Source of the DNA: Candidatus Aegiribacteria sp. MLS_C
Lineage (GTDB): Bacteria > Fermentibacterota > Fermentibacteria > Fermentibacterales > JCC-6
DNA length: 64,000 nt
Reading direction: 5' to 3'
Assembly: GCA_002030045.1 (NCBI GenBank)
Contig: LQBI01000024.1
Coordinates: forward strand, 202,848-266,847
A program made the position numbers and the translations under genes. The notes under the pieces are model-generated. The model ran no database searches and was not told the origin of the DNA. It saw nothing but the letters and a program-made list of their open reading frames with translations. This document shows, piece after piece, positions 1-29,455 of this stretch. Position 1 is the stretch's first letter, and the number at the start of each line of letters is the position of its first letter.

Positions 1-591
1 CGGCGAAGACCGGTATTCTGAAGTTGTCATCCAGAGGGAGGTAGAAGAGTTCTGAAAGCGTTGCCACCAGCGACCCCACGATGAGAGTGACGGGAGTGAA
101 CCTCCATCCGAACTCCGGCGACGCCCAGAGAGCAAAAAGACTTATTAGCAGGCAGGTGTTGAACGCGGCAAGGCTGCCTTCCAGCGTCCTCTGGCCCACC
201 AGCCTGATTCTTCCGAAGTGCTTGCCCACCAGAGCGGCCGCACTGTCCCCCAGGCTGAGGTACATCAGCGACACCACCGCTATCTCCTCGCGGAACACCA
301 GGATGGTGAAGGCGGCCGAGGCCACCAGGATGGTGGATGCGGTCATGCCGCCCTGCAGCTCGTTCTTTCGGAGCACCTTGCCGAAGAAACGCATCATGAA
401 GCTCTTGAATGGCCTGTAACGGGCCTTCAGGAAATCCAGGGCTAGAAGCACCACCGCCAGGAGGGCAAGCGATCCCGATAGATAGAGCCTGCCGCTGACT
501 GGATATGCGTTGTGAACGACTATGACGGCCATCGGAAAAACCGCGGACCCGATGTGTATGGTTTTCCTTATCGATTCCTCAAAATGCGGCA
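1..591 (-). CDS. Dolichol/phytol kinase-like CTP-dependent polyprenol kinase family membrane protein. Partial: the gene starts at 591 and its 3' end lies beyond the window start.
   Basis: My own minus-strand translation gives MPHFEESIRK...LSLGDSAAALVGKHFGRIRLVGQRTLEGSLAAF. The GDSxAAxVGKxFG motif plus several TM helices is typical of the dolichol-kinase/DGK1/VTE5 family. No stop codon before the window edge. Confidence 0.45.
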
Positions 592-621
592 TGGGAGCGC
601 CTCACGCGTCCTGCGAGGAGA

Positions 622-1701
622 TCAGAAACCGGCTCCGAGGGAAACTCTGTGAGTGGCATCGAGGTCCTGGTGGCCCAGATACGCATAGTCCAGTCCGACC
701 GGATGGTCCATGAGGCGGAAACTGAGACCGAGGCCGGCCGTCATGTTGCCCTCGGAGGAGCCTATCCTTAGAGCTACGAGGTCCTTCACCAGGAATTCCG
801 CACCTAAATGTGTGTCCAGGCTGACGCCGCTGAAATTGTACTGGGCGGAATACTCCCGGCCTTCGAAACGGAAGTCTCCATCGGCGGCGATGGTTGCTAC
901 AGTGGCGAACTTGCTGATAGGCCACTTCAGGGCAAGGCCCAGCTTGACGGTGGGCAGTACGCTCTCGCTGACGCCGTTGTTCCAGAAGAGATGGGTACCG
1001 GATATGTCCTGAAGGTTCACCCCGACGGAGAACGCGTCCGAAGGCTGGTACCTTGCTCCGATGTCGAGACCCAGACCGAAGGCGCTGTACCCCATCAGCC
1101 CTCTTCTTATGACCTTGGCGGATGCGCCTACTGAGAACTCCCCGCTCAGCATACGTGACCAGGAGAGGTAGAGGGCCCAGTCCACTGCGCTGTCGTAGGT
1201 TATCAGGCTCTCGTCGTAGACTATCTCCTCGCCGGGATCCCACTCGCCGTTGCCCTCGGTCCCGTCGGGATTGGAGACGGGATCCCAGTCATCGTCGCCT
1301 GCGTCCCCCGGAACGCCGGTGCCGTCCTCCCCGAAGACCCCGTCGGAGCCCGTGTCGTACCATGGAAGGCTGTTGGTGTTGGGGATGTCGCTTATGCCGG
1401 TCCTGAAGAGGCTGGCACCCAGCCCGGTCTCGCCGTCGGACCTCCCGTAACCCAGATAATCGTACTTGACCAGACCGCCGAAACGTTCAGAATGCATGAA
1501 CTGCGCCTGCTGCCCCCGCAGGAGATGCAGGCCGGCGGGATTCCAGTATCCCGAAGAAACGTCGTCCACCACTGCGCAGAAGGCTCCGCCCATGCCCAGT
1601 CCCCTGGCTCCGGCGCCTACGGAGAGGAACTCTCCCGCGTACTTGGCCGCGCCTGACACTGATACAGCAAGCAGCAGCGCCAGCAAGTATATGATCTTCA
1701 T
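622..1701 (-). CDS. Outer-membrane beta-barrel protein, PorV/PorQ/FadL-like (candidate T9SS-associated channel).
   Basis: Signal peptide MKIIYLLALLLAVSVSGAA. GYWNPAGL motif near the N-terminus. Alternating beta-strand pattern. C-terminal aromatic ...SLGAGF. Confidence 0.5.
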   Translation of the reverse strand: MKIIYLLALLLAVSVSGAAKYAGEFLSVGAGARGLGMGGAFCAVVDDVSSGYWNPAGLHLLRGQQAQFMHSERFGGLVKYDYLGYGRSDGETGLGASLFRTGISDIPNTNSLPWYDTGSDGVFGEDGTGVPGDAGDDDWDPVSNPDGTEGNGEWDPGEEIVYDESLITYDSAVDWALYLSWSRMLSGEFSVGASAKVIRRGLMGYSAFGLGLDIGARYQPSDAFSVGVNLQDISGTHLFWNNGVSESVLPTVKLGLALKWPISKFATVATIAADGDFRFEGREYSAQYNFSGVSLDTHLGAEFLVKDLVALRIGSSEGNMTAGLGLSFRLMDHPVGLDYAYLGHQDLDATHRVSLGAGF

Positions 1702-1722
1702 GTTACCAGCCCGTTCATGGTA

Positions 1723-2067
1723 TTACCCGGTGGATTCCATGTCGGAGGTGTACTTTACGATTGTCCTGCGACCATCCTCCGTGATCCTGGTGAAGAATAG
1801 ACCTATTCCGTAGGATCCGTCGGAGAGTTCCTCCTCCCTTATGACCACTGCCCGGGCAGGTATCTCGGGGCTTCCGTCTATCCTCAGGACAAGGTTGACC
1901 CTGGTCAGTTCGCCGAGGCTCCTTGAACTCACGCAGTAGATCCCCGAAGCGCTGATGTTTATGGCGGTCGCCGGAAGCATCGGCATGTCCTTCGGGCTGA
2001 CGCTCAGCTCGCAGTCGACACTGGCCCTGGAGAACAGTCTCTTCTCGGAGAGGGGGTTTTCGTGCAC
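1723..2067 (-). CDS. PilZ domain protein (c-di-GMP binding).
   Basis: RxxxR-like KRLFSR element and N-I-S-A-S-G matching the (D/N)xSxxG PilZ motif. 114 aa. Confidence 0.55.
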   Translation of the reverse strand: MHENPLSEKRLFSRASVDCELSVSPKDMPMLPATAINISASGIYCVSSRSLGELTRVNLVLRIDGSPEIPARAVVIREEELSDGSYGIGLFFTRITEDGRRTIVKYTSDMESTG

Positions 2068-2449
2068 TGTCGATCTGCCTTTCGATGCCGCATTAACCTT
2101 CGATCAGGATAATGCCAATGCTACCCCTGAAGTTCCGGCGTGTCAATGTTCACCCCAGTCTGAAGGCACTCCGCGCCTTCTTCCGGCAGTGCTTTACTGA
2201 ACGGCTCTATTCCGGTCCGCTCCCATTGGTTCCAGGCCAGTGAGCATACTTCCGATTCTGCGGCGGCAGGACAGCGGCACTTGCGGCCGGCGGATATTTT
2301 TCGATATTTCAGGTATTGTTCTGTTCACGGGGTGCTTCAGGACCTTCAGGAAGGTTGTCTGTAACAGGGTACGGTTCTACCGTCCAACCCTCGGTTCTTG
2401 TTCATGTCCTGGAGCGCAGTAAATAGTAGTTCTCAAACAGGAGGTGAAA

Positions 2450-2875
2450 ATGAGCTACCTCAGCGGTATTTGGCTGGTCGTACTGGGTATCCTTGCGGCG
2501 CCGAACCTCATCATATCCAGGAAGCCCGAGGCGAAGGAGATCATCGCAAAGATGGTCCCCTACCAGGGCTGGTTCGGTGCTATATCCGCAGTCTATGGGG
2601 TCATCGACATAATCAGGTTCATCGGCCGGCTCGACTGGTTCGAGTACATTCCCGTCGGAATGATAACCTTCATCGCGGGCGCCGTGGTCACACTTGCCCT
2701 GGGTCTTCTTCTCGGCATAGGCGTGATCAAGTCCTTCGTGAGTTCCGACGAAGCCAAGGCCAAGATGGACGAGATGATAGCCAAGCTCGCTCCGAAGCAG
2801 GGAACCCTCGGGCTCCTGGGTATCATCATCGGTCTCTGGATCATAGTCTACCGTCTTCTGGACCTCGCTCTCTAG
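2450..2875 (+). CDS. Small integral membrane protein, unknown function.
   Basis: Four predicted TM helices. GGAGG RBS 5 nt upstream of ATG 2450. Followed by a strong terminator. Confidence 0.5.
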   Translation: MSYLSGIWLVVLGILAAPNLIISRKPEAKEIIAKMVPYQGWFGAISAVYGVIDIIRFIGRLDWFEYIPVGMITFIAGAVVTLALGLLLGIGVIKSFVSSDEAKAKMDEMIAKLAPKQGTLGLLGIIIGLWIIVYRLLDLAL

Positions 2876-2897
2876 TTCTCAGGGACATGACACAGCC

Positions 2898-2929
2898 GGG
2901 AGCGGTCAACGACCGCTCCCGTTCTTTTT
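2898..2929 (+). terminator. Rho-independent terminator.
   Basis: GGGAGCGGTC-aac-GACCGCTCCC perfect 10-bp GC-rich stem followed by GTTCTTTTT. Confidence 0.75.
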
Positions 2930-3030
2930 CGGGCCTTCTCGTGCAGCGGCTGCAGGGAGTGTATTGACAGACGGCGGCCATCGAGTAGCTTCAGTCTGAT
3001 CACCGTCAAGAGCAATGAAGGGGGTGGAGA

Positions 3031-4383
3031 ATGCCGATAACGCAGCAGCAGGGCGACTACATCAGGAAGCTCATCGCCAGCGGCGCGCGGAGCAGGGCGG
3101 TGCTTGTGCTCAAGAAGATGCACCCGGCGGACATCGCCGACCTTTTCGGTACGCTGACCCCACCCGAAGCAACCATCCTGGTGGAACTCCTCTTCACGCA
3201 GAAAATGGCGGACAAGGTCCTTCTTGAACTGCCGGAAGGCATACTCCTCGAGGTTCTCGGCCGCATGGAGGATTCCAGGGCGGCGGAAATGCTCTCCCTC
3301 CTTGAATCCAACGACGCTCTGCTCTTCCTTCAGGCCCTTCCGGAGGATCGCAGGGACGAGATACTCCAGCTCCTGCCCCCTGTCCGGAAGCACCGAATAG
3401 AGCAGCTGCTCATCTATCCCGAGGATTCCGCCGGATACGTGATGAGCGACAGTTTCATGTCCATCAGCACCGAACTCACGGCCCAGCAGGCGGTGGAGGT
3501 AATCAGGGAGCAGAGCGAGGACGTGGACGTACCCTTCTACGTCTACGTTACCGGCGAGACGGGCAGGCTCACCGGGGTCGTCCCCCTACGCAGGCTGGTC
3601 ACCTGCCCGCCTGACACCCCCGTCAGGAGCCTGATGATGGCGGACCCATTCACGGTCAACGTGAATTCCGACCGCGAGGAAGCCGCCATTCTGGCCAGGA
3701 AGTACGACATCATGGCCATTCCGGTGGTGGACGACAACCACCGGCTGCTGGGGGTCATACCCGGCGACAGCCTGTTCGATGTAATGGAGGAGGAAGCCAC
3801 CGAGGACATGTACAGGATGGCCGGCCTCTCGGAGGACGACAGGATATTCAGCCCGGTCTCCACCGCATTCCGCCAGCGATTCCCCTGGATATGGGTCAAC
3901 CTGTTGACCGCCTTCGTGGCCTCGACTGTGGTCAGGGCCTTCCAGGGCACCATAGAGTCAGTGGCCACCCTTGTGGCCTTCATGCCCATAGTCGCCGGAA
4001 TGAGCGGCAACACCGGGAACCAGTCCCTGATCGTCATCACCAGGGGCATAGCCCTTGGAGAGATGGAATTCTCCTCCAGCCTCAGGGCCATCTTCAAGGA
4101 GGCCAGGGTCGGTGTCCTGCTGGGCCTGGTGGCGGGAACGATTGCCGCGGGCGTTGCCCTTGTCTTCCCGGGGAACACCGATCCCCTGCTCCTGGGCCTG
4201 GTGATTTTCATGGCCATAGTCGGCAACATGGGTCTCGCCGGGCTCCTGGGCGCCGCCATACCGCTGGTGCTGAGGTCCCTGGGCAGGGATCCTGCGCTGG
4301 GCAGCAACATCCTTCTGACCGCATTCACGGATTCCCTGGGCTACCTTCTGCTCCTCGGCCTGGGAATGCTCGTGATACTGTAG
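3031..4383 (+). CDS. mgtE: Magnesium transporter MgtE.
   Basis: MgtE N-domain, tandem CBS region (PFYVYVTGETGRLTGVVPLRRLV) and a C-terminal 5-TM divalent-cation-transporter domain. GGGGGTGGAG RBS. Confidence 0.85.
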   Translation: MPITQQQGDYIRKLIASGARSRAVLVLKKMHPADIADLFGTLTPPEATILVELLFTQKMADKVLLELPEGILLEVLGRMEDSRAAEMLSLLESNDALLFLQALPEDRRDEILQLLPPVRKHRIEQLLIYPEDSAGYVMSDSFMSISTELTAQQAVEVIREQSEDVDVPFYVYVTGETGRLTGVVPLRRLVTCPPDTPVRSLMMADPFTVNVNSDREEAAILARKYDIMAIPVVDDNHRLLGVIPGDSLFDVMEEEATEDMYRMAGLSEDDRIFSPVSTAFRQRFPWIWVNLLTAFVASTVVRAFQGTIESVATLVAFMPIVAGMSGNTGNQSLIVITRGIALGEMEFSSSLRAIFKEARVGVLLGLVAGTIAAGVALVFPGNTDPLLLGLVIFMAIVGNMGLAGLLGAAIPLVLRSLGRDPALGSNILLTAFTDSLGYLLLLGLGMLVIL

Positions 4384-6587
4384 TGATCCCCGCAACGATC
4401 CTTACCGGTGACGAGATCAGGAGAATCGAGGAAGCTACCCTTCCCGACCCCTTCATGTTACTCGGAATGCACCCCCTCGGACCGGAACACGGAAACCGGC
4501 TGGAGATCAGGGTCTTCTGTCCTCCCGCGGCGGGCATAGGGATAAGAGCGGAGGAGGGATCGCTGCTGGCCATGAAGAGGGTGACCGATTCCGGTCTCTT
4601 CGTCTGGGCTTCAAGAAATGCGGCGGACCCCTTCCCCTATACACTGGTAATAAGAACAGCGGATGGAGGCTGGGAGATGCCGGATCCCTACAGCTTCCTG
4701 CCACAGCTCGGCGAGCTGGACCTCCACCTCCTTGCAGAGGGGAACCACTACAGGCTCTACGAGAGACTCGGGGCAAGGTTGTGGACAGCGGGGAAAACAC
4801 GGGGCGTGCTCTTCTCGGTATGGGCCCCCAACGCAGCCGCAGTGAGCGTGATCTCCAGCTTCAACGACTGGGACAGGCGGCGACACCCGATGAGGACCAG
4901 GGGCAGCTCCGGCGTATGGGAACTCTTCGTCCCCGGAGCGGCACCCGGAGACCTCTACAAGTATTCGATCCTCTCCACCGGGGGCTCACTGCTGGAGAAG
5001 TCCGACCCGCTGGGCCTCGCCATGGAGTTCAGGCCCAGGACCGCCTCCGTGGTCGCTGACATCGACTCCTTCCAGTGGACAGACCAGGAATGGATGGAGG
5101 CGAGGCGAGGAAGGGACCACCGCACCTCGCCCCTCTCCATATACGAGATGCACGCCGGCTCCTGGAGGGGCACTTCGGACTGGAGGGATTTCACATCCTG
5201 GGAGGAACTGGCGGACCAGCTCATTCCCTACCTCACGGAATCCGGTTTCACTCACGTGGAACTCATGCCCGTCATGGAGCATCCCTTCGACGGTTCATGG
5301 GGCTACCAGACGCTGGGTTACTTCGCGCCCACCAGCCGCCTCGGGTCCCCCCGGGACTTCCAGGGGTTCGTGGACAGGCTGCACGGGGCATCCATCGGTG
5401 TGATACTGGACTGGGCTCCGGCGCATTTTCCATCCGACCCGTCCGGTCTGGCGTATTTCGACGGCACCTGCCTGTACGAGCACCAGGACCCCAGGATGGG
5501 CCGGCATCCCGACTGGGATACCCTGGTCTTCAACTACGACCGCAGGGAGGTCAGGAACTTCCTTGTCGCCAGCGGCCTCTTCTGGCTGGACAGGTACCAC
5601 ATCGACGGCCTGCGGGTGGACGCGGTGGCATCCATGCTTTACCTCGACTACTCGAGGAACGAGGGTGAGTGGGTCCCCAACGTCCACGGCGGCAGGGAGA
5701 ACCTTGGAGCCATCGAGTTCCTGAAGACTCTGAATTCCATCGCTTCCAGGGATTTCCCGGGAGCTATGACCATTGCCGAGGAGAGCACCTCATGGCCGGG
5801 AGTAACGGCACCCCTCGACAAGGGCGGGCTGGGCTTCACCTTCAAGTGGAACATGGGCTGGATGCACGATACTCTGAGTTTCTTCTCCAGGGAACCGGTG
5901 CACAGGAAGCACCACCTGGACGACCTGACCTTCTCGCTTCTCTACGCTTTCAGCGAGAGGTTCATACTTCCCTTCTCCCACGACGAGGTGGTGCACGGCA
6001 AGGCATCCCTCATCGGCAAGTGTCCCGGCGACCGGTGGCAGAAGTTCGCCAATCTCAGGCTGCTTCTCGCTTACCAGTGGTGCCATCCCGGCAAGCAGCT
6101 GTTATTCATGGGCTCAGAGTTCGGACAGTGGAGGGAATGGGACCACGACTCGGAACTGGACTGGGAGCTGCTCCGGTACGGTGAGCACTCGGGACTCAGA
6201 CTCCTGGTGGGGGACCTCAACCGTCTGCTCGCGTCGGACCCGGTCTTCAGCGGCAGCGACTGCGACCCGTCGGGCTTCCGCTGGATAGACTTCAGCGACA
6301 CCCTTTCCACGGTGGTCTCCTTCCTCAGGTTCTCATCCGGCGGCGATCATGCTGTGTGTGTGTTCAACATGACACCTGTCGTCAGGGAGGGTTACACCCT
6401 GGGCGTGCCCGGCCCGGGAAGCTATTCGGAGGTGCTGAACACCGACTCCGAGTCCTACGGGGGATCGGGCTCCGGGAACCTGGGCCGGGTGGACAGCAGG
6501 GAACAGGGAATGCACGGTCTCCCCTGCTCGGTCAGCCTTACCCTTCCCCCGCTGGCTGCCCTGGTTCTCAGACCGGAAAGGAGGTAG
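4383..6587 (+). CDS. glgB: 1,4-alpha-glucan branching enzyme GlgB (GH13). Probable GTG start overlapping the mgtE stop.
   Basis: LPDPFMLLGMHP corresponds to the ADPFSVLGMH N-terminal region of E. coli GlgB (recalled from memory). CBM48 region and GH13 catalytic core (GLRVDAVASMLY, FNYDRREVRNFL). The 898-aa ORF from 3891 is an upstream over-extension in the mgtE antisense frame. Confidence 0.85.
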   Translation: MIPATILTGDEIRRIEEATLPDPFMLLGMHPLGPEHGNRLEIRVFCPPAAGIGIRAEEGSLLAMKRVTDSGLFVWASRNAADPFPYTLVIRTADGGWEMPDPYSFLPQLGELDLHLLAEGNHYRLYERLGARLWTAGKTRGVLFSVWAPNAAAVSVISSFNDWDRRRHPMRTRGSSGVWELFVPGAAPGDLYKYSILSTGGSLLEKSDPLGLAMEFRPRTASVVADIDSFQWTDQEWMEARRGRDHRTSPLSIYEMHAGSWRGTSDWRDFTSWEELADQLIPYLTESGFTHVELMPVMEHPFDGSWGYQTLGYFAPTSRLGSPRDFQGFVDRLHGASIGVILDWAPAHFPSDPSGLAYFDGTCLYEHQDPRMGRHPDWDTLVFNYDRREVRNFLVASGLFWLDRYHIDGLRVDAVASMLYLDYSRNEGEWVPNVHGGRENLGAIEFLKTLNSIASRDFPGAMTIAEESTSWPGVTAPLDKGGLGFTFKWNMGWMHDTLSFFSREPVHRKHHLDDLTFSLLYAFSERFILPFSHDEVVHGKASLIGKCPGDRWQKFANLRLLLAYQWCHPGKQLLFMGSEFGQWREWDHDSELDWELLRYGEHSGLRLLVGDLNRLLASDPVFSGSDCDPSGFRWIDFSDTLSTVVSFLRFSSGGDHAVCVFNMTPVVREGYTLGVPGPGSYSEVLNTDSESYGGSGSGNLGRVDSREQGMHGLPCSVSLTLPPLAALVLRPERR

Positions 6588-7053: not shown

Positions 7054-7377
7054 ATGAGACTGGACTACTCCATCGGACTTGTCAGAGCGGAACTCTATTT
7101 CAGGGGAGCCAGGACCCTGAAGGACAGGAGGTCCCACCTCCGCTCCCTCAGGGACAGGCTCGAGAACATGGGTTTCTCAGTGGCACAGACCGGTCCTCCC
7201 GACATTGTATCAAGGACCTGGCTGGTGGCTGTGACCGCATCGGGATCCAGGTCAATGGTAGGCAGGAACCTGGACAGGGCGCGGGAGCTGCTTGACCAGC
7301 CGGTCTGGGAACTGGTGTTCCTGAGCCTGGATATCATGGGAGACGGAGAGACACTTCCAGAATGGGAGACATCATGA
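7054..7377 (+). CDS. DUF503 (YlxP-like) family protein.
   Basis: [45 protein letters not shown] matches the DUF503 N-terminal pattern. Abuts the previous stop. Confidence 0.55.
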
Positions 7378-7793
7378 GATCTCACAGGAAATATCTGTGG
7401 TTCGACACCCCTTCGCGGAGGGACTATATCAACATCACTCCCGACGTGGAAAGGGAACTCAGGGACAGCGGAATAAGGGAGGGGCTCTGTCTGGTCAACG
7501 CCATGCACATAACGGCCAGCGTCTACATAAACGACGACGAACCCGGGCTCCTTGCGGACTACGACCGCTGGCTGGAGGAACTTGCGCCGCACGAGCCTCT
7601 GTCCAGGTACAGGCACAACAATACGGGGGAGGACAACGGTGACGCTCACCTGAAGAGGCAGATCATGGGCAGGGAGGTGGTGGTTGCGGTCACCGACGGA
7701 AAGCTGGACCTTGGACCATGGGAACAGATCTTCTACGGCGAATTCGACGGGCGAAGGCGCAAGCGGGTGATGGTCAAGATAATCGGGGAATGA
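7374..7793 (+). CDS. yjbQ: YjbQ/UPF0047 family protein (secondary thiamine-phosphate synthase-like).
   Basis: HITASV and [39 protein letters not shown] are hallmark UPF0047 motifs. Confidence 0.8.
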
Positions 7794-7820
7794 GCCGCAC
7801 TGTGCGGCTCTGTTCCGTAT
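7792..7820 (+). terminator. Possible terminator hairpin after yjbQ.
   Basis: GAGCCGCAC/GTGCGGCTC 9-bp inverted repeat overlapping the stop codon. The downstream T-run is weak (tgttccgtatgtagcgtttt). Confidence 0.3.
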
Positions 7821-7847
7821 GTAGCGTTTTCATGAAAGGACAGCGGC

Positions 7848-8570
7848 ATGAGAGTTCCAACAGCATTGCTGGCGGCCATAGCACTGATCACCGCGGCTCC
7901 CGTAGCCGGGCAGGAATACTGGGAGTATCCCGCAACCATCAGTTCGACCGGATTGGGCACGGCATCTGCGGAGCCTGACGTGGCTTCCGTGACATTCGGT
8001 GTGAGCATCACCCGGTCGACCCCGGACGGTGCGGTGGACGAGGCCGGAAGGCTGATGGAATCCGCCATGGCAGCCGCCCGCAGTGAGGGGGTCAGGGGAC
8101 AGGACATGCAGACCACCAGCTACAACCTCTGGGTGCAGGAGGTCTGGGACGACTACGATTACGCTTACACCGGCGAGATGGAATACGTCGTCACGCACTA
8201 CGTCCAGGCAGAGGTCACTGACATCAATTCAGTGGGCGACGTACTGGCGGCAGTGGTGGAGGCCGGGGCCAACTCCATAACCGGAGTCTACTTCCATGTG
8301 GAAGACACCGCGGCTCTCTACGAGGAGGCCCGGGTACTTGCGGCCCGCAACGCCGTGGAGAAGGCGGAACAGCTCGCGGAAGCCTTCGGTGTCGAGCTGG
8401 GAGAGCTCCAGTCCATCAGCGAATGGACCAACAGCAACTACGGTTACGGTTACGACAGCGCCTACTACAACTACGGCGGAGGGGCAGGCTACACCGAATC
8501 CCCTCCCGTCACTCCCGGCGCCTACTCCATAACCGTCGAGGTATCCGCCACCTACGAAATAGTCCAGTAG
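7848..8570 (+). CDS. SIMPL-domain (DUF541) secreted protein.
   Basis: Signal peptide MRVPTALLAAIALITAAPVAG. SIMPL-like core and a Tyr/Gly-rich C-terminal segment. Confidence 0.55.
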   Translation: MRVPTALLAAIALITAAPVAGQEYWEYPATISSTGLGTASAEPDVASVTFGVSITRSTPDGAVDEAGRLMESAMAAARSEGVRGQDMQTTSYNLWVQEVWDDYDYAYTGEMEYVVTHYVQAEVTDINSVGDVLAAVVEAGANSITGVYFHVEDTAALYEEARVLAARNAVEKAEQLAEAFGVELGELQSISEWTNSNYGYGYDSAYYNYGGGAGYTESPPVTPGAYSITVEVSATYEIVQ

Positions 8571-15926: not shown

Positions 15927-16215
15927 AATCCATCAAAGGATTCCCGAATACCGGAACGAAACTCCCCAATCGAAAAGGCTCCCATGGGCATCAATGATAA
16001 CCTGAACCCCTTGTTATGCTGCTGCGGCATAACATCGAGAATTCCGGTGTTAACAAGCACAAGTGTATTGCCCTTGAACGTGTTATCGATATTGACTCGC
16101 ATATATCAATGCTTTTATTCTCTGTCAGCATAACCGGGCAACGGTGTTAACTTAACACGCTGCCGCATAATCATTGTTATGAAGAACCAGTTTGATTCTA
16201 CCGGAAAGGACCATT

Positions 16216-17940
16216 ATGAAAAAACTCTACTATGGAGACAATCTGGATGTTCTCCGAAGAGAGATAGCTAGCAATTCTATTGATCTTATATACTTAGATC
16301 CACCTTTCAACTCTAAAAAATCCTACAATGTGTTATTCTCTGGACCTACCGGTGAAGCAAGAGCACAAATACAGGCGTTCGACGATACTTGGAAATGGAC
16401 GCCAGAGACCGAGAGTATCTACATAGACATGCAAAACGGAAGCGTACCAGCAAGGGTTGCAGATGCGGCTCAAGCATTTCGCTCATTACTTGGTGAAAAT
16501 GATGTTCTCGCATACTTAATAACAATGGCTCCAAGATTAGTTGAGCTGCATAGAGTACTAAAATCAGAAGGATCCCTCTTTCTACATTGTGATCCTGCAG
16601 CAAGCCACTATTTAAAAGTGCTACTGGATGCAGTATTTGGAGGGCGGCGATTCCGAAATGAAATCGTGTGGAAAAGAACTGGTGCCCATACAACCCCAAG
16701 AAGGTTCGAAACAATACATGATATATTGTTGTTTTATGCAAAGGGCGATAATGCATACTTTAATCCAATTAAAACACCTTACACTAAGGATCATGTTGAT
16801 TCAAGATATACCGAAGACGAAAAAGGTAGGCTGAAATTCGTTACAGGCGGGAACATCCTTTCAGGACCTGGTGCTACAAACGGCGACTCGGGCCAACCAT
16901 GGAAAGGTTTTGATCCATCAAGCAAGGGTCGGCACTGGGCAGTACCAGGTTATCTTGCAGAGCAGATGCCAGAGGGATTCTCTGAATTGTCGGTAAGAGA
17001 AAGACTGGATGCTCTCTATGATGCCGATCTAATTGAAATAAAGAAAGGAGCTGAATGGCCGCATCCGGTTAAATACCTTGCGGATGATGATGGTAAATTT
17101 CTATCAGATATCTGGGCATACCAACCAGGTACAGAAGGCGTACTATACGGTACAGACCAAGGAATTGACGCAGATGTGCAATGGATCGGTCCAACAGATC
17201 CAGAAGATCTTGGATATCAGACTCAGAAACCGGAAGGTCTCTTGGATAGGATTATTAGCTCAACATGCCCGCCTGAAGGGATTGTGCTTGATCCATTCTG
17301 TGGTTGTGGAACCACAATTGCTTCCGCACAAAGGCTTGGTCGGAATTGGATTGGGATTGATATCACCTACCTAGCTATTGATTTAATCGAGAAAAGACTC
17401 GTTGCCCAGTACGGTGATAACATATCCGATGAATACGAGATCTTTGGTATTCCGAGAGACATGGATGGAGCAATGACTCTCTTCAACTCAAATCCATTTG
17501 ACTTTGAGAGATGGGCAGTTTCTATTGTAAATGGCCAGCCTAATGAAAAGCAAGTCGGTGATAGAGGTATAGATGGGATCGTGAGATTCCCACTTGATGT
17601 TGCTGGACGAAAGAGCGCGAAAGCAATTGTCTCTGTCAAAGGCGGAAAGTCACTCAACCCAGGAATGGTTAGAGATCTAATGGGTACAGTAGATGCAACA
17701 CAACAAGCAGAGATAGGTATTCTAATCTGCTTAGAAAATCCCACAAAAGGTATGCTTGATGCTGCGGCAAGAGCTGGGGTCTACGAATGGCCCTTAACAA
17801 GAGAGCGTTATCCAAAGGCTCAAGTCATAACAATAGAAGAGTTACTAGATGGCAAAAGACCACATATGCCTCCAACATTGCTCCCATACATTAAGGCTCA
17901 GAAATTTGAAGATCCGAGTGGGCAGATGAAGTTGCTATAG
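16216..17940 (+). CDS. Beta-class N6-adenine/N4-cytosine DNA methyltransferase with a C-terminal Mrr-cat-like restriction-endonuclease-fold domain.
   Basis: Motif IV DPPF (LIYLDPPFNS) precedes motif I (VLDPFCGCGTT). C-terminal GDRGIDGIV...VSVKGGKS resembles an Mrr_cat D...(E/Q)xK core. Low GC. GAAAGGA RBS. Confidence 0.75.
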   Translation: MKKLYYGDNLDVLRREIASNSIDLIYLDPPFNSKKSYNVLFSGPTGEARAQIQAFDDTWKWTPETESIYIDMQNGSVPARVADAAQAFRSLLGENDVLAYLITMAPRLVELHRVLKSEGSLFLHCDPAASHYLKVLLDAVFGGRRFRNEIVWKRTGAHTTPRRFETIHDILLFYAKGDNAYFNPIKTPYTKDHVDSRYTEDEKGRLKFVTGGNILSGPGATNGDSGQPWKGFDPSSKGRHWAVPGYLAEQMPEGFSELSVRERLDALYDADLIEIKKGAEWPHPVKYLADDDGKFLSDIWAYQPGTEGVLYGTDQGIDADVQWIGPTDPEDLGYQTQKPEGLLDRIISSTCPPEGIVLDPFCGCGTTIASAQRLGRNWIGIDITYLAIDLIEKRLVAQYGDNISDEYEIFGIPRDMDGAMTLFNSNPFDFERWAVSIVNGQPNEKQVGDRGIDGIVRFPLDVAGRKSAKAIVSVKGGKSLNPGMVRDLMGTVDATQQAEIGILICLENPTKGMLDAAARAGVYEWPLTRERYPKAQVITIEELLDGKRPHMPPTLLPYIKAQKFEDPSGQMKLL

Positions 17941-17947
17941 GAATCAT

Positions 17948-18018
17948 AACCACAGCGTGAACCAGACGCCTGTAAGAGTTCGGGGTAAATGCTAACGGCG
18001 CTGGTTACGCTGATTGTT
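17948..18018. repeat. Family-1 attC-like imperfect palindromic element, copy 1, immediately 3' of the methyltransferase.
   Basis: AACCACAGCGTGAACCAGACGCC ... GGCGCTGGTTACGCTGATTGTT: the arms are reverse complements. Bounded by AAC...GTT. About 85% identical to copy 2. Confidence 0.6.
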
Positions 18019-18034
18019 ATCTAGAAAGAAGACC

Positions 18035-18940
18035 ATGAATCAACTGCCACAGATGCTTTGTCCCGAGTGCTTAAGACCCATGGAGAATAACGGAAGTACA
18101 GTAAAACCAACAGCAAAGTACAAAGACTGTATTCGAAAGTGTCAAGCCTGTGGTATTGGTTACTCGAATTCAGTAGCAAAACCTTCACTGATTTTCGAAG
18201 ATCCTAGAAAGAACATTCCTGGTTTTGTGGACAGCTCAGATTTTCTCAAAATCCTGGAGAAATCCAATAACCGAAGGAATATCAGTAACAAGAAGTGCAA
18301 AGCGGGATTCTCAACATCAGAGGACGCAGTTACTTATACCTTCGTTAAATCCTTTTCTCAAGCTGATTCAATCGAGCGAATGATGAAAGTACTCGGACTT
18401 GAGATGAACAGCAACCATGTTGATTTGTTTCTATGGGGATGTCCTATTTCAAAAGGCACGGACATTACATTGATTAATAGGATGAATTCTTTGCTAAGTA
18501 ATGAGTTTGCGGAGAGGGCAAATTCTCTCACAGAGCCAGACATTATTCTGAGCGTTGAGGGCTACGGTATTGTCATTATTGAAGTGAAGTTGCACAGTTC
18601 TAACGAAGTTAAAGCAACTGAAAAGTTAAGCAATTATCTGGATCGCAGCTTCTATACTAATGTAGCAAAGGCAAAGTCCTCTCAGCATTATGAGCTAGTT
18701 AGAAACTGGTCAATTGGTAACGCCTTATCCGAGGGTTGCAACTTCACACTTATCAATTTAGGCAAAGAATCATTGTTTACAGACCGAAATGCATCAAAGC
18801 TACAGCTGTTTAAGGAATCACTAAACTGTAATAAGAGGCGCCAGTTTGCTCAGGTATCCTGGGAAGAAATTCTGAACAGATTAGAAGAGAGGGATTCTCA
18901 GTTAAAAGAATATCTGAAGAGGAAAACAAAGTATAGATAA
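18035..18940 (+). CDS. Putative restriction endonuclease: N-terminal Zn-ribbon plus a PD-(D/E)xK nuclease core.
   Basis: CPEC...CQAC ribbon. EPDIILSVEGYGIVIIEVK reads as PD-x13-EVK. Adjacent to the methyltransferase. Low GC. Confidence 0.55.
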   Translation: MNQLPQMLCPECLRPMENNGSTVKPTAKYKDCIRKCQACGIGYSNSVAKPSLIFEDPRKNIPGFVDSSDFLKILEKSNNRRNISNKKCKAGFSTSEDAVTYTFVKSFSQADSIERMMKVLGLEMNSNHVDLFLWGCPISKGTDITLINRMNSLLSNEFAERANSLTEPDIILSVEGYGIVIIEVKLHSSNEVKATEKLSNYLDRSFYTNVAKAKSSQHYELVRNWSIGNALSEGCNFTLINLGKESLFTDRNASKLQLFKESLNCNKRRQFAQVSWEEILNRLEERDSQLKEYLKRKTKYR

Positions 18941-19007
18941 CCACAGCATGAACCAGAAGCCTGCAAGGAAATGGGTAAGGTTAACGGCTCTGGTTACGCT
19001 GATTGTT
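18939..19007. repeat. Family-1 attC-like element, copy 2, immediately 3' of the endonuclease gene, overlapping its stop codon.
   Basis: AACCACAGCATGAACCAGAAGCC ... GGCTCTGGTTACGCTGATTGTT. Shares an 18-nt exact match (CTGGTTACGCTGATTGTT) with copy 1. Confidence 0.6.
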
Positions 19008-19050
19008 GTGCGTATAAATGCTATAGACACTTAACGCTAGTGGAGGAAGA

Positions 19051-19812
19051 ATGTCAGATGAAATGAAGGGGAAAGTGGCGCTGATTACCGGTGGTAGTTC
19101 TGGAATCGGTAAAGCAGCTGCCTTTGCGTTTGCCAACGAGGGAGCACAGGTAGTAATCGCCAGCAGATCAGAGGATACTGGAGAGAAAGCTGCCAGCGAT
19201 ATAAGACAATCCGGTGGAAATGCGAAATGGATTAGGGCAGACGTAACGCAGGAAGACCAAGTTAAGACATTGGTAACACTGATATTAGAGGAGTATGGCA
19301 GGCTTGATTATGCCTTCAATAACGCAGGATCAGGTGGAAAAGGCGGTTGGACTACTGAGATAGAGGAAGAGGACTGGGATAAGACAATATCAGGCTTTCT
19401 GAAGAGTGTATGGCTGTGCATGAAACACGAACTACCAGCAATGCTTGATAACGGACAAGGTTCGATAGTGAATAATTCATCTGTAGACGGTAAACGAGGT
19501 TTCCGTTGGGACCCCGTTTACTCAGCTGCGAAGCATGGAGTGATTGGGTTAACAAAATCATCTGCATTGCAGTATGCCCAGCAAGGAATCCGTATTAACG
19601 CAATCTGCCCTGGATGGATAATAACCCCTCCAGTTGAGAAGATACTAGAGCATAATCCCGAAGCAGGGAATGGTATGCTTCTTCACCAGCCAATTGGAAG
19701 ATTCGGTAAACCTGAGGAAGTAGCTCAGGCAGTTGTCTGGCTGTGTTCAGACAAGTCATCATTGATTACAGGCACAGTGCTTCCAATTGATGGAGGCTAT
19801 CTAGCGATATAA
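19051..19812 (+). CDS. SDR family oxidoreductase (3-oxoacyl-ACP reductase-like).
   Basis: TGGSSGIGKA (Rossmann motif), NNAG, YSAAK (YxxxK). GGAGGA RBS. Confidence 0.85.
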   Translation: MSDEMKGKVALITGGSSGIGKAAAFAFANEGAQVVIASRSEDTGEKAASDIRQSGGNAKWIRADVTQEDQVKTLVTLILEEYGRLDYAFNNAGSGGKGGWTTEIEEEDWDKTISGFLKSVWLCMKHELPAMLDNGQGSIVNNSSVDGKRGFRWDPVYSAAKHGVIGLTKSSALQYAQQGIRINAICPGWIITPPVEKILEHNPEAGNGMLLHQPIGRFGKPEEVAQAVVWLCSDKSSLITGTVLPIDGGYLAI

Positions 19813-19821
19813 ACCGCACGG

Positions 19822-19897
19822 CAACAGAATGCAGCAGAACAGCGTTTGGGAGTTTAACCTGGGTTTTTGCAGTCTGCTGATTCAGAGCGTTCAATAG
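19822..19897. repeat. Family-2 attC-like structured repeat, copy A, 3' of the SDR gene.
   Basis: ...AATGCAGCAGAACAGCG...(loop)...TTTTTGCAGTCTGCTGATT..GAGCGTTCAAT, with imperfect inverted arms CAGCAGAAC.GC / GCAGTCTGCTG. Confidence 0.55.
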
Positions 19898-20293: not shown

Positions 20294-22147
20294 ATGTGTT
20301 CACGGGTTATTTTCCTTGCTACTTATCTGGTTATGTTCGCGCCCTTTGAAGTTTACGCAGGTACCGCAACCCAGACTGACTGGTCCGGCGGTGACGGAAT
20401 CTTCGGACCGGTTATAGACTGGGGCAATGAGTTCTATTCTGATACAGACATTGAATGCTACAACAGTCCTTTCAATATTGTTCTCCAGAAAACAATGGCT
20501 CTGACTCCTCTGGAACATACCGTTTGCGGGGATTTCGTTATGCCTGCGGGAGTGTACTCTGCTGATGTCAACGGAGACGGCTATATGGATGTTCTCGGAG
20601 TATCCGTTGCTGCTAGTAATATTACCTGGTGGGAGAATCTGGATAGCTCGGGCACAAGCTGGGCTGAACACATTGTTGATGGAGATTTCGATGGTGCCCG
20701 ATCAGTGTATTCCGCTGATGTCAACGGAGACGGCTATATGGACGTCCTCGGAGCAGGCTGGACAGCCAACGACATCACCTGGTGGGAGAGTATTGACGGC
20801 TCGGGAACAAGCTGGACGGAACACATCGTAGATGGGGAATTCCATACCGCCGCCTCAGTGTATTCCGCTGATGTCAACGGAGACGGTTACATGGATGTCC
20901 TTGGAGCATCTTACAATGGCTCTTTGATCTCTTGGTGGGAGAATCTGGACGGTTCGGGTACCAGTTGGACGGAACATATTGTTGATGGGGCTATCAACAG
21001 TGCTATTTCAGTATGTGCTGCAGATGTCAACGGAGACGGCTACATGGATGTTCTCGGAGTTTCTCAAAATTCATCCTATGTTGCCTGGTGGGAGAATGTG
21101 GACGGCTCGGGCACAAGCTGGGCTGAACATACAGTTGACGCGTCTTTCGGGGGTGCCTATTGGGTATCCTTCGCGGATGTCAACGGGGACAGTTACATGG
21201 ATGTTCTGGGAGCTGCCGCTGATGATGACGAAATCACCTGGTGGGAGAACGTTGACGGCTCGGGCACAAGCTGGATGGAACATATCGTAGATGATAATTT
21301 TGATTATGCCTCATCAGTATACTCCGTGGATGTCAACAGAGACGGCTACATGGATGTCCTGGGCTCAGCTCAATATGCCAACGACATCACCTGGTGGGAG
21401 AACACTGACGGCTCGGGCACTAGCTGGACGGAACATACCGTAGATGGTGACTTCGGTGGTCCTTTCTCAGTGTTTTCCGCTGATATCAACGGAGACGGCT
21501 GGCTGGATGTCCTCGGAGCTGCATATCTTGATAACGACATAACCTGGTGGGATCTGACCGAATATCTCCCTGATGGTTCGCTTGAATCCAGCGTGCTAAA
21601 TGTACAGGAAAGCCCAGACTGGCAGACAATTGACTGGACCTGTACCGAGCCTGCCGGGACAAGTGTTGCTGTGCAGGTGAGGGCTTCGAACAATTCTTCC
21701 AGCATGGGAGCCTGGTCGGATACACTTACAGCTCCCTGTACCCTGGAAGGAATCCTGTCCGACGAAGACAACTATTTCCAGTACAGACTCATACTGAGCA
21801 CCACCGATTCGTTTCTTTCTCCCGTGCTTCACGATGTAGCTGTAGGCTGGGAGCCGTTCACCGGAACGCATGAAGGATCCCGGGTAGAGGTTTCCACATA
21901 CTCTCTATACGGCGCGCAGCCAAATCCGGCACTGGGTCATGCAACGCTGGTCTTTTCGCTGCCTGTTGATTCAAAAGCTGAACTGACAGTATACGACCTG
22001 ACCGGGCGAGTGGTTTACTCCATTAATGGTGTGTACAGTACAGGCGTGCACGAGGTGATACTCGAAGGTCTTGCAAGTGGTGTGTACATGGCCCTTATGA
22101 CCTCGGAAGAATTTGTGGCAACGCTCCAATTCGTTGTGATCGATTAG
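20294..22147 (+). CDS. Secreted FG-GAP/VCBS-repeat (beta-propeller) protein with a T9SS type-A C-terminal sorting domain.
   Basis: Signal peptide. Eight or more tandem repeats of about 60 aa (VYSADVNGDGYMDVLG...ITWWEN.DGSGTSWTEH.VD) carrying a DxNxDGxxD Ca-binding loop. C-terminal QPNPALGHATLVFSLP...LTVYDLTGRVV...SGVYMAL. Confidence 0.75.
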   Translation: MCSRVIFLATYLVMFAPFEVYAGTATQTDWSGGDGIFGPVIDWGNEFYSDTDIECYNSPFNIVLQKTMALTPLEHTVCGDFVMPAGVYSADVNGDGYMDVLGVSVAASNITWWENLDSSGTSWAEHIVDGDFDGARSVYSADVNGDGYMDVLGAGWTANDITWWESIDGSGTSWTEHIVDGEFHTAASVYSADVNGDGYMDVLGASYNGSLISWWENLDGSGTSWTEHIVDGAINSAISVCAADVNGDGYMDVLGVSQNSSYVAWWENVDGSGTSWAEHTVDASFGGAYWVSFADVNGDSYMDVLGAAADDDEITWWENVDGSGTSWMEHIVDDNFDYASSVYSVDVNRDGYMDVLGSAQYANDITWWENTDGSGTSWTEHTVDGDFGGPFSVFSADINGDGWLDVLGAAYLDNDITWWDLTEYLPDGSLESSVLNVQESPDWQTIDWTCTEPAGTSVAVQVRASNNSSSMGAWSDTLTAPCTLEGILSDEDNYFQYRLILSTTDSFLSPVLHDVAVGWEPFTGTHEGSRVEVSTYSLYGAQPNPALGHATLVFSLPVDSKAELTVYDLTGRVVYSINGVYSTGVHEVILEGLASGVYMALMTSEEFVATLQFVVID

Positions 22148-22295: not shown

Positions 22296-22377
22296 ATTGA
22301 ACAAGCAAATGCAGCAGAACTGCGTCAGAACTATTGAAACTCAGGTTTTTGCAGTCTGCTGATTTAAGCGTTCAGTC
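22296..22377. repeat. Family-2 structured repeat, copy B, about 150 nt 3' of the FG-GAP gene.
   Basis: ATTGAAC-AAGCAA-ATGCAGCAGAACTGCG...GGTTTTTGCAGTCTGCTGATT-TAAGC-GTTCAGT. The R''-L''...L'-R' style layout has AAC/GTT boundaries. Confidence 0.55.
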
Positions 22378-22510: not shown

Positions 22511-22551
22511 TGAACAAGCGTATGCAGCAGTCATTGAATCCGAACAAAATG
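22511..22551. repeat. Degenerate partial copy of the family-2 repeat (5' arm only).
   Basis: TGAACAAGCGTATGCAGCAGTCATTGAATCCGAACAAAATG resembles the 5' halves of copies B and C. Confidence 0.35.
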
Positions 22552-22647
22552 AAAGCAAGGCTTATACCTCCGCCGCCGGGAAACTCATCCCGGCTCAATT
22601 GCTGATCTTTTGCTTGTGGATCCATGTTTTTCTAGTCGTTGAATGAT

Positions 22648-23007
22648 CTAGGCTTTCTCGTTCTTTTCGTAGTGAACCCGTGCGTCTCGCAGAAGATGTA
22701 CACAATGGGTATTAAGGCTTTCTCCATGGCGCAGGGCGTCTATGGTAAGTTCTTTGTGTAGATCCTTGCCGACTCGAAGAACAAACTTGCCCGAGTAATC
22801 TTTGCCAGCGGTTTCAGCAGGAAGGGTTGCACCGTCTTGCCCGTATATCTCGATCCACTCTTCTACTACCTGGCAGAGTTCGCGATATACCTTAGCTTCA
22901 TCGTCTCCATGAACACCTCCAAGCATAAGCCCGGGACATGTGCCGATGTAGCAATGATCTTCTTCCGACCACTCGACAATCTTGAGATATCGGTCACTCG
23001 TTTTCAT
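22648..23007 (-). CDS. hicB: HicB family antitoxin.
   Basis: 119 aa. HicB-like fold features (YIGTCPGLMLGGVHGDDEAKVYRE). Overlaps hicA by 4 nt. Confidence 0.6.
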   Translation of the reverse strand: MKTSDRYLKIVEWSEEDHCYIGTCPGLMLGGVHGDDEAKVYRELCQVVEEWIEIYGQDGATLPAETAGKDYSGKFVLRVGKDLHKELTIDALRHGESLNTHCVHLLRDARVHYEKNEKA

Positions 23008-23198
23008 TCCATCACCTCGCGGATTGCTTTCTCTACCTCGCGCTCCTGATACTTCTTTGCGTCCTGCGAAAGGTAACCGCTTATTGTTATCTTCGCTCCC
23101 TTGGGGTGAGTGAAGTTTCGATGGCTACCTTTTCCGCCGCGGTTTATAAAACCCGCATTCTTCAGGTCGCGAATCAACTCTCTTACTTTCCTCGGCAT
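23004..23198 (-). CDS. hicA: HicA family mRNA-interferase toxin.
   Basis: MPRKVRELIRDLKNAGFINRGGKGSHRNFTHPKGAKITISG is the canonical HicA/YcfA sequence. Confidence 0.75.
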   Translation of the reverse strand: MPRKVRELIRDLKNAGFINRGGKGSHRNFTHPKGAKITISGYLSQDAKKYQEREVEKAIREVME

Positions 23199-23454
23199 AT
23201 CTATATAGTACTACAATGATACTACAAATGTCAATGGATCAGCCTAAGACAGAGCTGTATTCAGCAATCATCAGATCCTTTGGCAATACAACCCCTGCGA
23301 AGATTACAGGCATAAACGAGTATACCGAACAGAACCGAACATACCGAACCAATCCAAGCATATCCGCCCGCGAAAGTGTTCATCCAGAGATATTGTGTAT
23401 TGAAATCGGGCTGATTATCATCAATCCAACTGGCTGGGAGTATAACCAGATCCC

Positions 23455-23537
23455 GAACACAACAACAAAATGCAGTAGAACTGCGCAGCGGTGCCTGAAG
23501 GTTATGCTTTTGCAGTCTACTGATTTTGAGTGTTAAA
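23455..23537. repeat. Family-2 structured repeat, copy C, upstream of hicA on the opposite strand.
   Basis: AAAATGCAGTAGAACTGCG...GCTTTTGCAGTCTACTGATTTTGAGTGTTAAAA. Confidence 0.5.
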
Positions 23538-23630
23538 AAGCCAAGTAATTTGCCAATCATTGTAGGGGCTATTTTGTTCCTGATTGGTTTTATTATCGTA
23601 TTACTAAACTATATCGTAGGAGGGTAACAA

Positions 23631-23903
23631 ATGGAATCGATACAAGAGGTGCATCTGTTCATTGAAGGTGGTGGAGATCAGAGACTTGTTAATGAGATTA
23701 TTCAAGCACTACACCCTGAATTTCTTAGGATACCTGGCCTGAGAATACACAAGCATGATGTTGCAAATTGGCCAGAGGAGCCTTTTGTCTATGCAGCAAT
23801 CAGTTTGAAGACACAACACGGAATCAAGTTGACGACATCCAATTGCCTCACACAAGATGGATCAGCGTACGGAAAGAAATTGTACCTGATTATGGTCAGA
23901 TAG
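23631..23903 (+). CDS. Hypothetical small protein.
   Basis: GGAGGG RBS 7 nt upstream. 90 aa. Low GC. Confidence 0.35.
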   Translation: MESIQEVHLFIEGGGDQRLVNEIIQALHPEFLRIPGLRIHKHDVANWPEEPFVYAAISLKTQHGIKLTTSNCLTQDGSAYGKKLYLIMVR

Positions 23904-24028: not shown

Positions 24029-24433
24029 TTACTCAAGGTTTGGCACAAAGTCACAGAGATATGTGACCAGAATCGGGAAGAGGTCTTCATGACGATGATT
24101 ATACCTGAACTCCTGTTCCTTCAGGTAGAGCGGGAAATTTTTGTGTGAGACACCATGATGCTTTATAAGACGCTCCTTGGCAAAACTCCAGAACCCTTCG
24201 AGACCGTTGATGTAGACACGCCCCCGGGAGAACTCCTTTCCGTGGTCAACCTTGAGATGCCTGTAACCGCAGAACATCAGGCTGTCATATATCTGGAAGC
24301 GATCGTTGTATACAATGCTTCCCCGGCGGACCTTCTTCAAAGTCAGACCGAGCACGGTCTCGGCCCTGACAGCAGGCTCCGTTCTGCTCACAGTCCTCGC
24401 GGAATTCGTATTCGAACTGTTCCAGAGCATCAT
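24029..24433 (-). pseudogene. IS1595-family (ISXO2-like DDE) transposase, C-terminal fragment only. N-terminally truncated or decayed.
   Basis: GSIVYNDRFQIYDSL..YRHLKVDHGKEF..VYINGLEGFWSFAKERL matches the DDE_Tnp_IS1595 C-terminal half. An in-frame stop lies 5 codons upstream of the first Met. GC composition shifts to host-like immediately 5' of it. Confidence 0.6.
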
Positions 24434-28312: not shown

Positions 28313-29455
28313 CCGTGTGTCTGTTGAACAATGATTCAGAAGGACCGCCCGATAGCAGCATGAAGCGGACGGCGCCAGGCGCCGCCGCTGATGCTGAGCG
28401 TTGACGAGATGGAAACGGCGGGTCAGGTCCGAATCAGTGTGAGATTCATGAGCCTTTTCCGGAACGGGATCGGGGACATCCTCGGATGATGTCTTCGATT
28501 CCATCCAGTCCCAGTACTCCTCCATATCGAAGTATTCTCTGCCTTCCGTCCAAGCAACGTCCTGTTCGACCAGCAGCGCTCCGATAAACCCGAACGCCGA
28601 TGCCTGATTGGGAAAAATCCTGATTGCTCTCTCCCTCCTGCGGATCTCCTGGTTCAATCTCTCAATTGAATTAGTCGTTCTGAGTCTCTTGCGGTACTTC
28701 TCCGGAAGAGCCATGACCGCAGGAGCATCATCAAGGCGCTCTTCGAGTTTCGATACAGCCTTCGGCGCTGTTATTCCAAACCTGTCGAAAACATCACCGG
28801 CAAGCTCCCTGGCCGTCTCCTCGTCCGGAGCATCGAAGACAGGGCGTATCCTGTTCTTGAGCTCCTTCTTACGACGCTTGGGCGCGCTGTCCAGAATGTT
28901 CTTCATCAGGTGTGTCTGACAAGCCGCCAGCTGCTTCCGGGCAGCTGACTCCTTATGGCTTTTACAAGGCCTGCGTGGTTGTCTGACACAACAGGGTCCG
29001 CTCCGCTGAGACTTCTGCCGACAAGCCACCTCAGGAACTCCTCCCAGGATACCTCGCTCTTCGGGAACTCCATCCCCCGCATCTCCTCAACGACCTCCTC
29101 ACCCTGAGGGTGCTTACCCCGTTGATCACCATCTCGATAATGGCCAGCAGGAAGGCCTGCTCGCTGCGCTGAAGCCTGCAGAACGTCTCCGTATCGAACT
29201 GGCCGTCACGAAGCCGTGGCACCTGCAGCTCCAGCCTGCCGAACCCGGTCTTGATAAACCTCGACCGGTAACCACTCCTGTAGGCCGTTAGGCTCTCAGA
29301 ACGCTTGTGCTTCACAGCCCCGACCTGTTAAGCCGCCTGCTGGTCAAGGACCTGATTGGCCACCTTCTCCATCAGCCGGCCGACTCCTTCGTCGGAACTG
29401 AACAGGCCTTGCACATCTTCCGAATCAAGTGTAATGTTGTATTGGGTCATCGGAC
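28307..29455 (-). mobile_element. IS256-family transposase gene, disrupted into three frames (frameshifted or pseudogenised).
   Basis: N-terminal MTQYNITLDSEDVQGLFS, middle YRSGYRSRFIKTGFGRLELQVPRLRDGQF...GVSTLRV, and C-terminal TNSIERLNQEIRRRERAIRIFPN. The pieces are ORFs 29328..29576, 29031..29315 and 28307..29029. Confidence 0.7.

Follow-up and report, generated by a model that had tools for sequence, protein, structure and literature searches.

Candidatus Aegiribacteria sp. MLS_C, an uncultured lake bacterium, carries a DNA methyltransferase gene directly followed by a nuclease gene, and the question raised by this locus is whether the two constitute one restriction-modification (RM) system or two genes that travel separately. 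The stretch analysed comprises 64,000 nucleotides (the window, to which all coordinates refer). In it, the gene of a beta-class N6/N4 DNA methyltransferase of 574 amino acids (aa) (16216-17940, + strand) is followed by the gene of a stand-alone predicted nuclease of 301 aa, with a zinc ribbon and a PD-(D/E)xK motif (18035-18940, + strand). An initial annotation had taken them as a candidate novel Type II RM pair separated by an element resembling attC, the site used by integron integrases. From the results described here, we consider it likely that an integron cassette array of the chromosome starts in this region, and that methyltransferase and nuclease occupy separate single-gene cassettes, independent of each other and each ending in its own attC site.

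attC sites and cassette boundaries

The element between the two genes is a true attC site (17944-18022, + strand), as had been suspected, and it closes the methyltransferase cassette. Its R' box reads GTTATCT and the crossover point is G18016|T18017; the hairpin formed by the bottom strand carries two bulged bases and has a folding energy of -17.3 kcal/mol (z = -4.4). A second site (18935-19011, + strand), whose R'' box overlaps the stop codon of the nuclease gene and whose crossover point is G19005|T19006, closes the nuclease cassette, which covers 18017-19005 as a whole. Both sites show the attC anatomy, with terminal ...AAC and GTT... boxes, an unpaired spacer, a variable loop and a long imperfect stem in which two bulged bases are confined to one arm. 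The second site folds weakly when taken alone (z = -1.65), and its near-identical counterpart in another array, L001, reaches z = -4.4. The two sites of the window are about 90% alike; this likeness was considered as a sign of a shared origin of the cassettes and rejected, since dozens of attC sites in other genomes, belonging to unrelated cassettes, match both at 80-89% identity.

A common hairpin alignment was made with 10 elements from the window and L001, and a covariance model, R1, was built from them. Compensatory changes were present in 13 of the 16 stem pairs of these elements, together with two bulged columns, and R1 gave 71.6 bits to the site between the genes and 70.3 bits to the one closing the nuclease cassette. 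As an independent test set we used 83 distinct sites from other genomes, none of which had served to build R1; because these were aligned by fitting them to the model, pairing is favoured, and the following values have to be read with that in mind. Paired cells amounted to 94.7% versus 70.8% in shuffles, and none of 500 shuffles reached the observed value. With slid partners only 21-41% were paired, and the covariation score was 0.553 versus 0.150. The AAC/GTT box pairs were formed in 75-80 of the 83 sites, and the boxes are present in all five sites of the window.

These five strong sites, found by scanning the window with R1, start at 17944, 18935, 19816, 22296 and 23457 and are co-oriented, all on the + strand. 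Strong matches were restricted to an island of low GC content, 40-45% at approximately 16.0-24.1 kb, while the rest of the window has about 58-63% (genome about 60%); past 24-25 kb the content is back to about 60%.

The nuclease cassette is also found in L001/L002, with 85% identity at the protein level and 88% at the DNA level. By comparison of the window with L001, DNA homology runs only from G|TTATCTAG (18016) to GATTG|TT (19007). Both ends are canonical crossover points, with unrelated sequence on either side; the attC at 18935-19011 is conserved along with the nuclease gene. In L001 the cassette is located after a higBA cassette and before one encoding a small-molecule methyltransferase of the UbiE type, the remainder being toxin-antitoxin cassettes. 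A homologue with 63% identity in L109/L110 is likewise flanked by attC sites and lies between DUF3024 and GIY-YIG-like cassettes. The nuclease cassette has therefore three different sets of neighbours in three arrays, and in the two arrays outside the window it stands as its own attC-bounded unit with no DNA methyltransferase. Considering that an attC lies between the two genes and that the nuclease cassette recurs alone, we regard them as separate mobile units and not as an RM operon, so that the pair proposed initially is not upheld.

According to the mechanism we propose, the integron integrase would excise and insert each cassette by way of its attC, acting on the folded bottom strand and recombining at the G|TT of the R' box. 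Since each cassette is moved alone at this point, the adjacency of the two genes is most likely the product of cassette shuffling. The methyltransferase would then be an orphan enzyme acting on host DNA, either in protection or in epigenetic marking, and the nuclease would work without a dedicated methyltransferase, most plausibly as a defence nuclease that is self-contained, like those of Type IV, or under some other regulation.

The same attC family is found in related genomes. Public contigs were scanned for an 18-mer of the attC 3' arm, and R1 was then applied to them. The 18-mer matched many contigs from Aegiribacteria, Fermentibacteria, Hyd24-12 and Ca. Sabulitectum, on which R1 detected 171 sites in arrays of up to about 14. 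L033, L043, L054, L024 and L074/L100, from metagenomes and from Ca. Sabulitectum silens, carry 9-14 sites per 8-15 kb. Arrays of this length suggest that these bacteria of the FCB superphylum have large, sedentary chromosomal integrons. A contig of Ca. Aegiribacteria GLR63 (L089; WTBT01000041.1) encodes at 7248-8000 a homologue of IntI1, with an identity of approximately 34%. This integrase carries the integron-specific patch ALERKYP...W.W and is oriented divergently from four sites of this attC family (118-4870), which together make up a complete integron in the Aegiribacteria lineage.

The nuclease and its family

In public records the nuclease gene starts too late, with 237 aa in NCBI and 295 aa in JGI, and the homologues support 301 aa from the ATG at 18035, which includes the first CxxC. 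Over the part annotated by NCBI, the ORF is 100% identical to a hypothetical protein of Candidatus Aegiribacteria sp. MLS_C. Residues are counted here from M1 at this position, that is, the numbering of the homologue alignment minus 1. The motifs are C9xxC12, C36xxC39 and P168-D169-x13-E183-V-K185, in agreement with the CxxC...CxxC ribbon and the PD-x13-EVK motif of the initial annotation, which gave the length as 302 aa. Invariant in 20 homologues were C36, C39, E96, P168-D169 (EPD169), E183-x-K185 and YELVRNW.

The AlphaFold (AF2) model of the protein had a pLDDT of 93. When it was compared by Foldseek with PDB and BFVD, there was no match at E <= 1e-3, and weak matches were of the PD-(D/E)xK type (e.g., Card1, Bse634I, SfsA, and EcoO109I). 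The motif and the order of the secondary-structure elements do fit PD-(D/E)xK, whose core fold is alpha-beta-beta-beta-alpha-beta. Among profiles, REase-ARP scored 26.7 bits on the window protein against a cutoff of 27, and it matched 9 of 20 family members at E <= 0.01; PDDEXK_13 matched 3 of the 20 and the PADLOC candidate PDC-M15A weakly matched 7, neither of them matching the window protein. The proposed PD-(D/E)xK assignment is thus based on the invariant motif, the secondary-structure order and these sub-threshold profile matches. NCBIfam, PADLOC and PHROGs gave nothing for the window nuclease, sequence and profile searches of PDB returned only generic zinc-finger patterns, and Pfam on the longer family members detected a few accessory domains only (LMWPc, Ada_Zn_binding), which are uninformative on function.

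A profile search of 1.84 billion representative proteins placed 990 clusters in the family at E <= 1e-3, of which 288 reached E <= 1e-30. Members are mostly stand-alone proteins of about 300 aa, and a search of plasmids found no match to the family. Distant homologues are located beside AIPR, beside Qat together with a Type I RM system, beside AddAB-like helicase-nuclease genes, within a cluster of DUF1156, DUF499 and helicase genes, and in a four-gene cluster of unknown kind. The family is uncharacterised and occurs in defence islands.

It could be argued that the protein is not a defence nuclease and that it is a repair or recombination nuclease, or toxin-like cargo, present in the arrays by chance. 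The lack of PADLOC and PHROGs matches and of a significant structural neighbour is compatible with this, as is the homologue next to AddAB-like genes. Nevertheless, several homologues lie in clear defence islands (those with AIPR, with Qat and Type I RM, and with DUF1156/DUF499/helicase), and of 20 family members 7 weakly match PDC-M15A and 9 match REase-ARP; we consider a role outside defence unlikely. Within a defence role, and taking into account that the nuclease is tolerated without a dedicated methyltransferase, a modification-dependent or otherwise self-limiting enzyme would be more likely than a classical Type II enzyme.

The methyltransferase and the case for a restriction-modification pair

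Beta-class methyltransferases and Mrr-type folds are textbook knowledge. In the window enzyme, Pfam N6_N4_Mtase aligns with residues 22-391 (1.5e-39), and DPPF (residues 27-30) precedes FCGCGTT (about 360-366), the motif order of the beta class, as read initially. The catalytic motifs are intact, and the catalytic and target-recognition part corresponds approximately to residues 1-395. PADLOC assigned the protein to MTase_II (1.8e-50), and its relatives in PDB are M.MboIIA, CcrM and EcoP15I Mod. By its DPPF motif the enzyme is probably N6-adenine specific.

The family has at least 8000 scored candidates, all with E <= 1e-20, and among the best 120 of the listed homologues nearly all aligned over at least 95% of the query. 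Methyltransferase plus Mrr-like domain appears, by these alignments, as a very large family of identical two-domain architecture with members in phages and plasmids, and the novelty attributed to this architecture is not supported. Full-length relatives with about 48% identity are solitary beside the integrase in temperate phages of Streptomyces and Mycobacterium, and one homologue is solitary among toxin-antitoxin genes on a Microbacterium plasmid. Another, on plasmid pTL2A, adjoins an Mrr_cat nuclease, and the one in L005 adjoins a weak HNH match. The closest homologues (80%, 69%, and 67% identity) have neighbours different from those of the window, and around the 80% homologue there are no attC sites.

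Several observations weigh against the reading of two independent cassettes in an array. A methyltransferase adjacent to, and co-oriented with, a catalytically intact nuclease has the look of an RM system. The arrays L001/L002 and L109/L110 are short (2.0-4.6 kb), and a cognate methyltransferase could sit elsewhere in the genome; also, the methyltransferase family pairs with varied nucleases in other genomes. Regarding the array itself, no integron integrase was found in the 64-kb window, either by a scan for tyrosine-recombinase motifs or by a tblastn search with IntI1. On its left side, the methyltransferase cassette has an uncertain boundary: a possible degenerate attC at 16127-16184 (+ strand), where CATAAC...GTTATG was read directly and the putative crossover is G16176|T16177, forms a bottom-strand hairpin with z = -2.2 and was not detected as attC by R1 (only 8 bits, on the wrong strand). 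With no tyrosine recombinase, the window fits either a CALIN, as clusters of attC sites without an integrase are called, or a stretch of chromosomal integron distant from its integrase.

The two adjacent cassettes could nonetheless form a functional Type II RM system, in which the methyltransferase would protect a motif, the nuclease would cut the same motif when unmethylated, and the attC would be incidental. The order of the genes, with the methyltransferase first and both on the same strand, is that of such a pair, and the nuclease residues E96, D169, E183 and K185 are invariant. Close methyltransferase homologues adjoin varied putative nucleases, and integron cassettes carrying RM systems and other defence genes have already been documented (PMC10661359). 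On the other hand, the nuclease cassette occurs twice elsewhere with no DNA methyltransferase, and a Type II nuclease moving alone would kill its new host. Of the 8 different contexts in which nuclease homologues were seen, at most 2 had an adjacent methyltransferase of any kind, from other families, and there was no constant partner. The 80% methyltransferase homologue has a different neighbour. No locus with both proteins was found in another organism by tblastn and in the fetched loci; only L107/L108, JGI/Logan contigs of the same organism from the sample 'MLSed', carry both, with a gene order identical to that of the window. Taking both sides into account, we hold it quite improbable that the adjacent cassettes are a working RM pair whose halves the integron integrase can move separately. 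If it were so, cassette shuffling could build, break and re-pair RM systems. According to a less radical variant, the nuclease would be the first member of a single-gene family of anti-phage nucleases spread by integrons.

Returning to the two independent cassettes, there remains the part of the methyltransferase that lies beyond its catalytic region. The C-terminal domain of about 175 aa (GDRGIDG...SVKGG; residues 398-574, 17407-17937, + strand) was described in the initial annotation as an extra domain of Mrr or restriction endonuclease (REase) fold, and this is confirmed. Pfam NA-iREase1 matched it with 3.1e-8 (34 bits, cutoff 27), and Mrr_cat with 0.003 (18 bits, under the cutoff of 21). 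Structural modelling, suggested together with that annotation, gave an AF2 model (20 homologous segments, pLDDT 86.6) with a nuclease fold: by Foldseek it matched the MspJI nuclease domain (E 6e-5, probability 1.0, TM 0.53 on the query) and AspBHI (3e-3). The site is formed by D449, D453 and S473-V-K475. In 118 homologues D449, G451, D453, G454 and K475 are invariant, and 117 of them have S473, where active Mrr-type enzymes have the E or Q of (E/Q)xK. Considering the invariant residues and the serine at the E/Q position, the site seems to be under selection yet non-canonical. Because SxK replaces (E/Q)xK, the domain is probably not a nuclease, and it would most likely be a DNA-binding or regulatory module, rather than one that cleaves. 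Profile-profile comparison revealed no relationship between the nuclease family and this domain, and literature searches on REase-ARP and NA-iREase1 found nothing.

That the methyltransferase is a bifunctional enzyme similar to Type IIG or IIL, cutting DNA with its C-terminal domain, as had also been proposed, is very unlikely: the predicted fold is a genuine nuclease fold and the invariance of D449, D453 and K475 indicates selection, but the serine is nearly universal, the best Pfam match is a family named 'inactive REase', the methyltransferase family is solitary in temperate phages and also found beside separate nucleases, and in the Type IIG enzymes known the nuclease is N-terminal and the methyltransferase belongs to the gamma class.

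The array and its relation to known systems

Downstream of the nuclease cassette, the next one (19006-19889) carries a short-chain dehydrogenase gene (19051-19812, + strand; Pfam adh_short_C2 5e-66), after which comes its attC (19816-19895, + strand, R1 72.7 bits). It is followed by the gene of an FG-GAP repeat protein with a type IX secretion sorting domain (20294-22147, + strand; Pfam FG-GAP_3 1.6e-53, Por_Secre_tail 5.9e-7), in which six tandem copies of a 153-nt unit (20463-21518) correspond to FG-GAP repeats of 51 aa. The cassette of this secreted protein has 2.5 kb, which is large by cassette standards, and the attC after it is at 22296-22376 (+ strand, R1 66.8 bits).

A hicB-hicA toxin-antitoxin pair is reversed within the following cassette (22648-23198, - strand), where Pfam HicB and HicA_toxin were detected on identical JGI gene calls; this region has 78% nucleotide identity to L059. 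The segments 22531-22597 and 23261-23535 are 88-95% identical to L043/L047, where they are about 165 nt apart in one cassette bounded by attC. As these segments flank hicBA in the window and adjoin closely in L043/L047, the toxin-antitoxin module seems to have entered, by insertion or exchange, a small conserved cassette with no obvious open reading frame (ORF). The last attC of the array in the window is at 23457-23538 (+ strand, R1 77.3 bits). After the last small ORF (23631-23903) the R1 scan detected no closing attC, and at the right edge of the island there is a fragment of an IS1595-family transposase (24029-24433, - strand; Pfam DDE_Tnp_IS1595 3.9e-20), so that the array may have been cut by this insertion sequence. 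A weak attC-like hairpin at 28347-28405 (+ strand; 27 bits with R1, GC 0.69) is located 4 kb outside the island, just after a gene for a transporter of 614 aa, and could be an isolated attC site or a plain GC-rich terminator hairpin.

On the left side, 290 nt (15927-16215) separate a gene of 1206 aa with LTD repeats from the methyltransferase gene. This segment contains small palindromes, GTTATGC...GCATAAC at about 16013-16034 and CATAAC...GTTATG at 16130-16181, and has no homology to any of the fetched arrays. A promoter and terminator scan gave results no better than those of shuffled sequence.

Neither gene stands out from the kinds already known. Read as a new RM pair whose methyltransferase is bifunctional, the locus would add modestly to REBASE, and this reading is not borne out by the results. 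What is new is modest, and consists of a family of integron attC sites from a lineage that has been little studied and an uncharacterised nuclease family that travels as a cassette. The results show that Ca. Aegiribacteria and their Fermentibacteria-like relatives carry large chromosomal integron arrays with an attC family of their own. The comparison between arrays also provides a clean natural example of a cassette delimited to the base. As for the zinc-ribbon PD-(D/E)xK family (about 990 clusters), its presence both as single-gene cassette and in defence islands makes it a reasonable candidate for phage defence.

By comparison with what is known of other beta-class methyltransferases (PF01555; M.MboIIA, CcrM, and the Mod subunits of Type III), the window enzyme has the same arrangement, with motif IV (DPPF) before motif I (FxGxG) and the target-recognition region between them, and differs by its extra C-terminal Mrr-type domain of about 175 aa. 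The matches to PDB relatives end by approximately query residue 410 and none extends into this domain. The domain itself shares with the catalytic domains of Mrr, MspJI and AspBHI (PF04471, PF22722) the predicted fold and the GDxGxDG and xK motifs; unlike them, it has a near-invariant serine in place of the Q/E of (Q/E)xK, and its partner in the fusion is a methyltransferase, not a domain that reads modification. The nuclease shares the E...PD...ExK core with REase-ARP (PF22558), PDDEXK_13 (PF20796) and PDC-M15A, the similarity to REase-ARP extending over its C-terminal two-thirds. In contrast to these families, its N-terminus bears a Cys4 zinc ribbon, a CGxGYSN motif is conserved in it, and it occurs alone, as a single-gene cassette.

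The array differs from full integrons in that the 64 kb hold no integrase or attI, and in its host, which belongs to a little-studied lineage of the FCB superphylum. Its attC sites have a C as one extrahelical base of the bottom strand, where the classic attC(aadA7) has a G. In other respects it resembles integron cassettes and CALINs, with promoterless single-gene units each ending in attC, AAC...GTT boxes and a bulged hairpin. As in integrons, the attC sites form a co-oriented array that includes a reversed toxin-antitoxin cassette, the boundaries fall at G|TT, and an IntI is found beside the same attC family in a relative.

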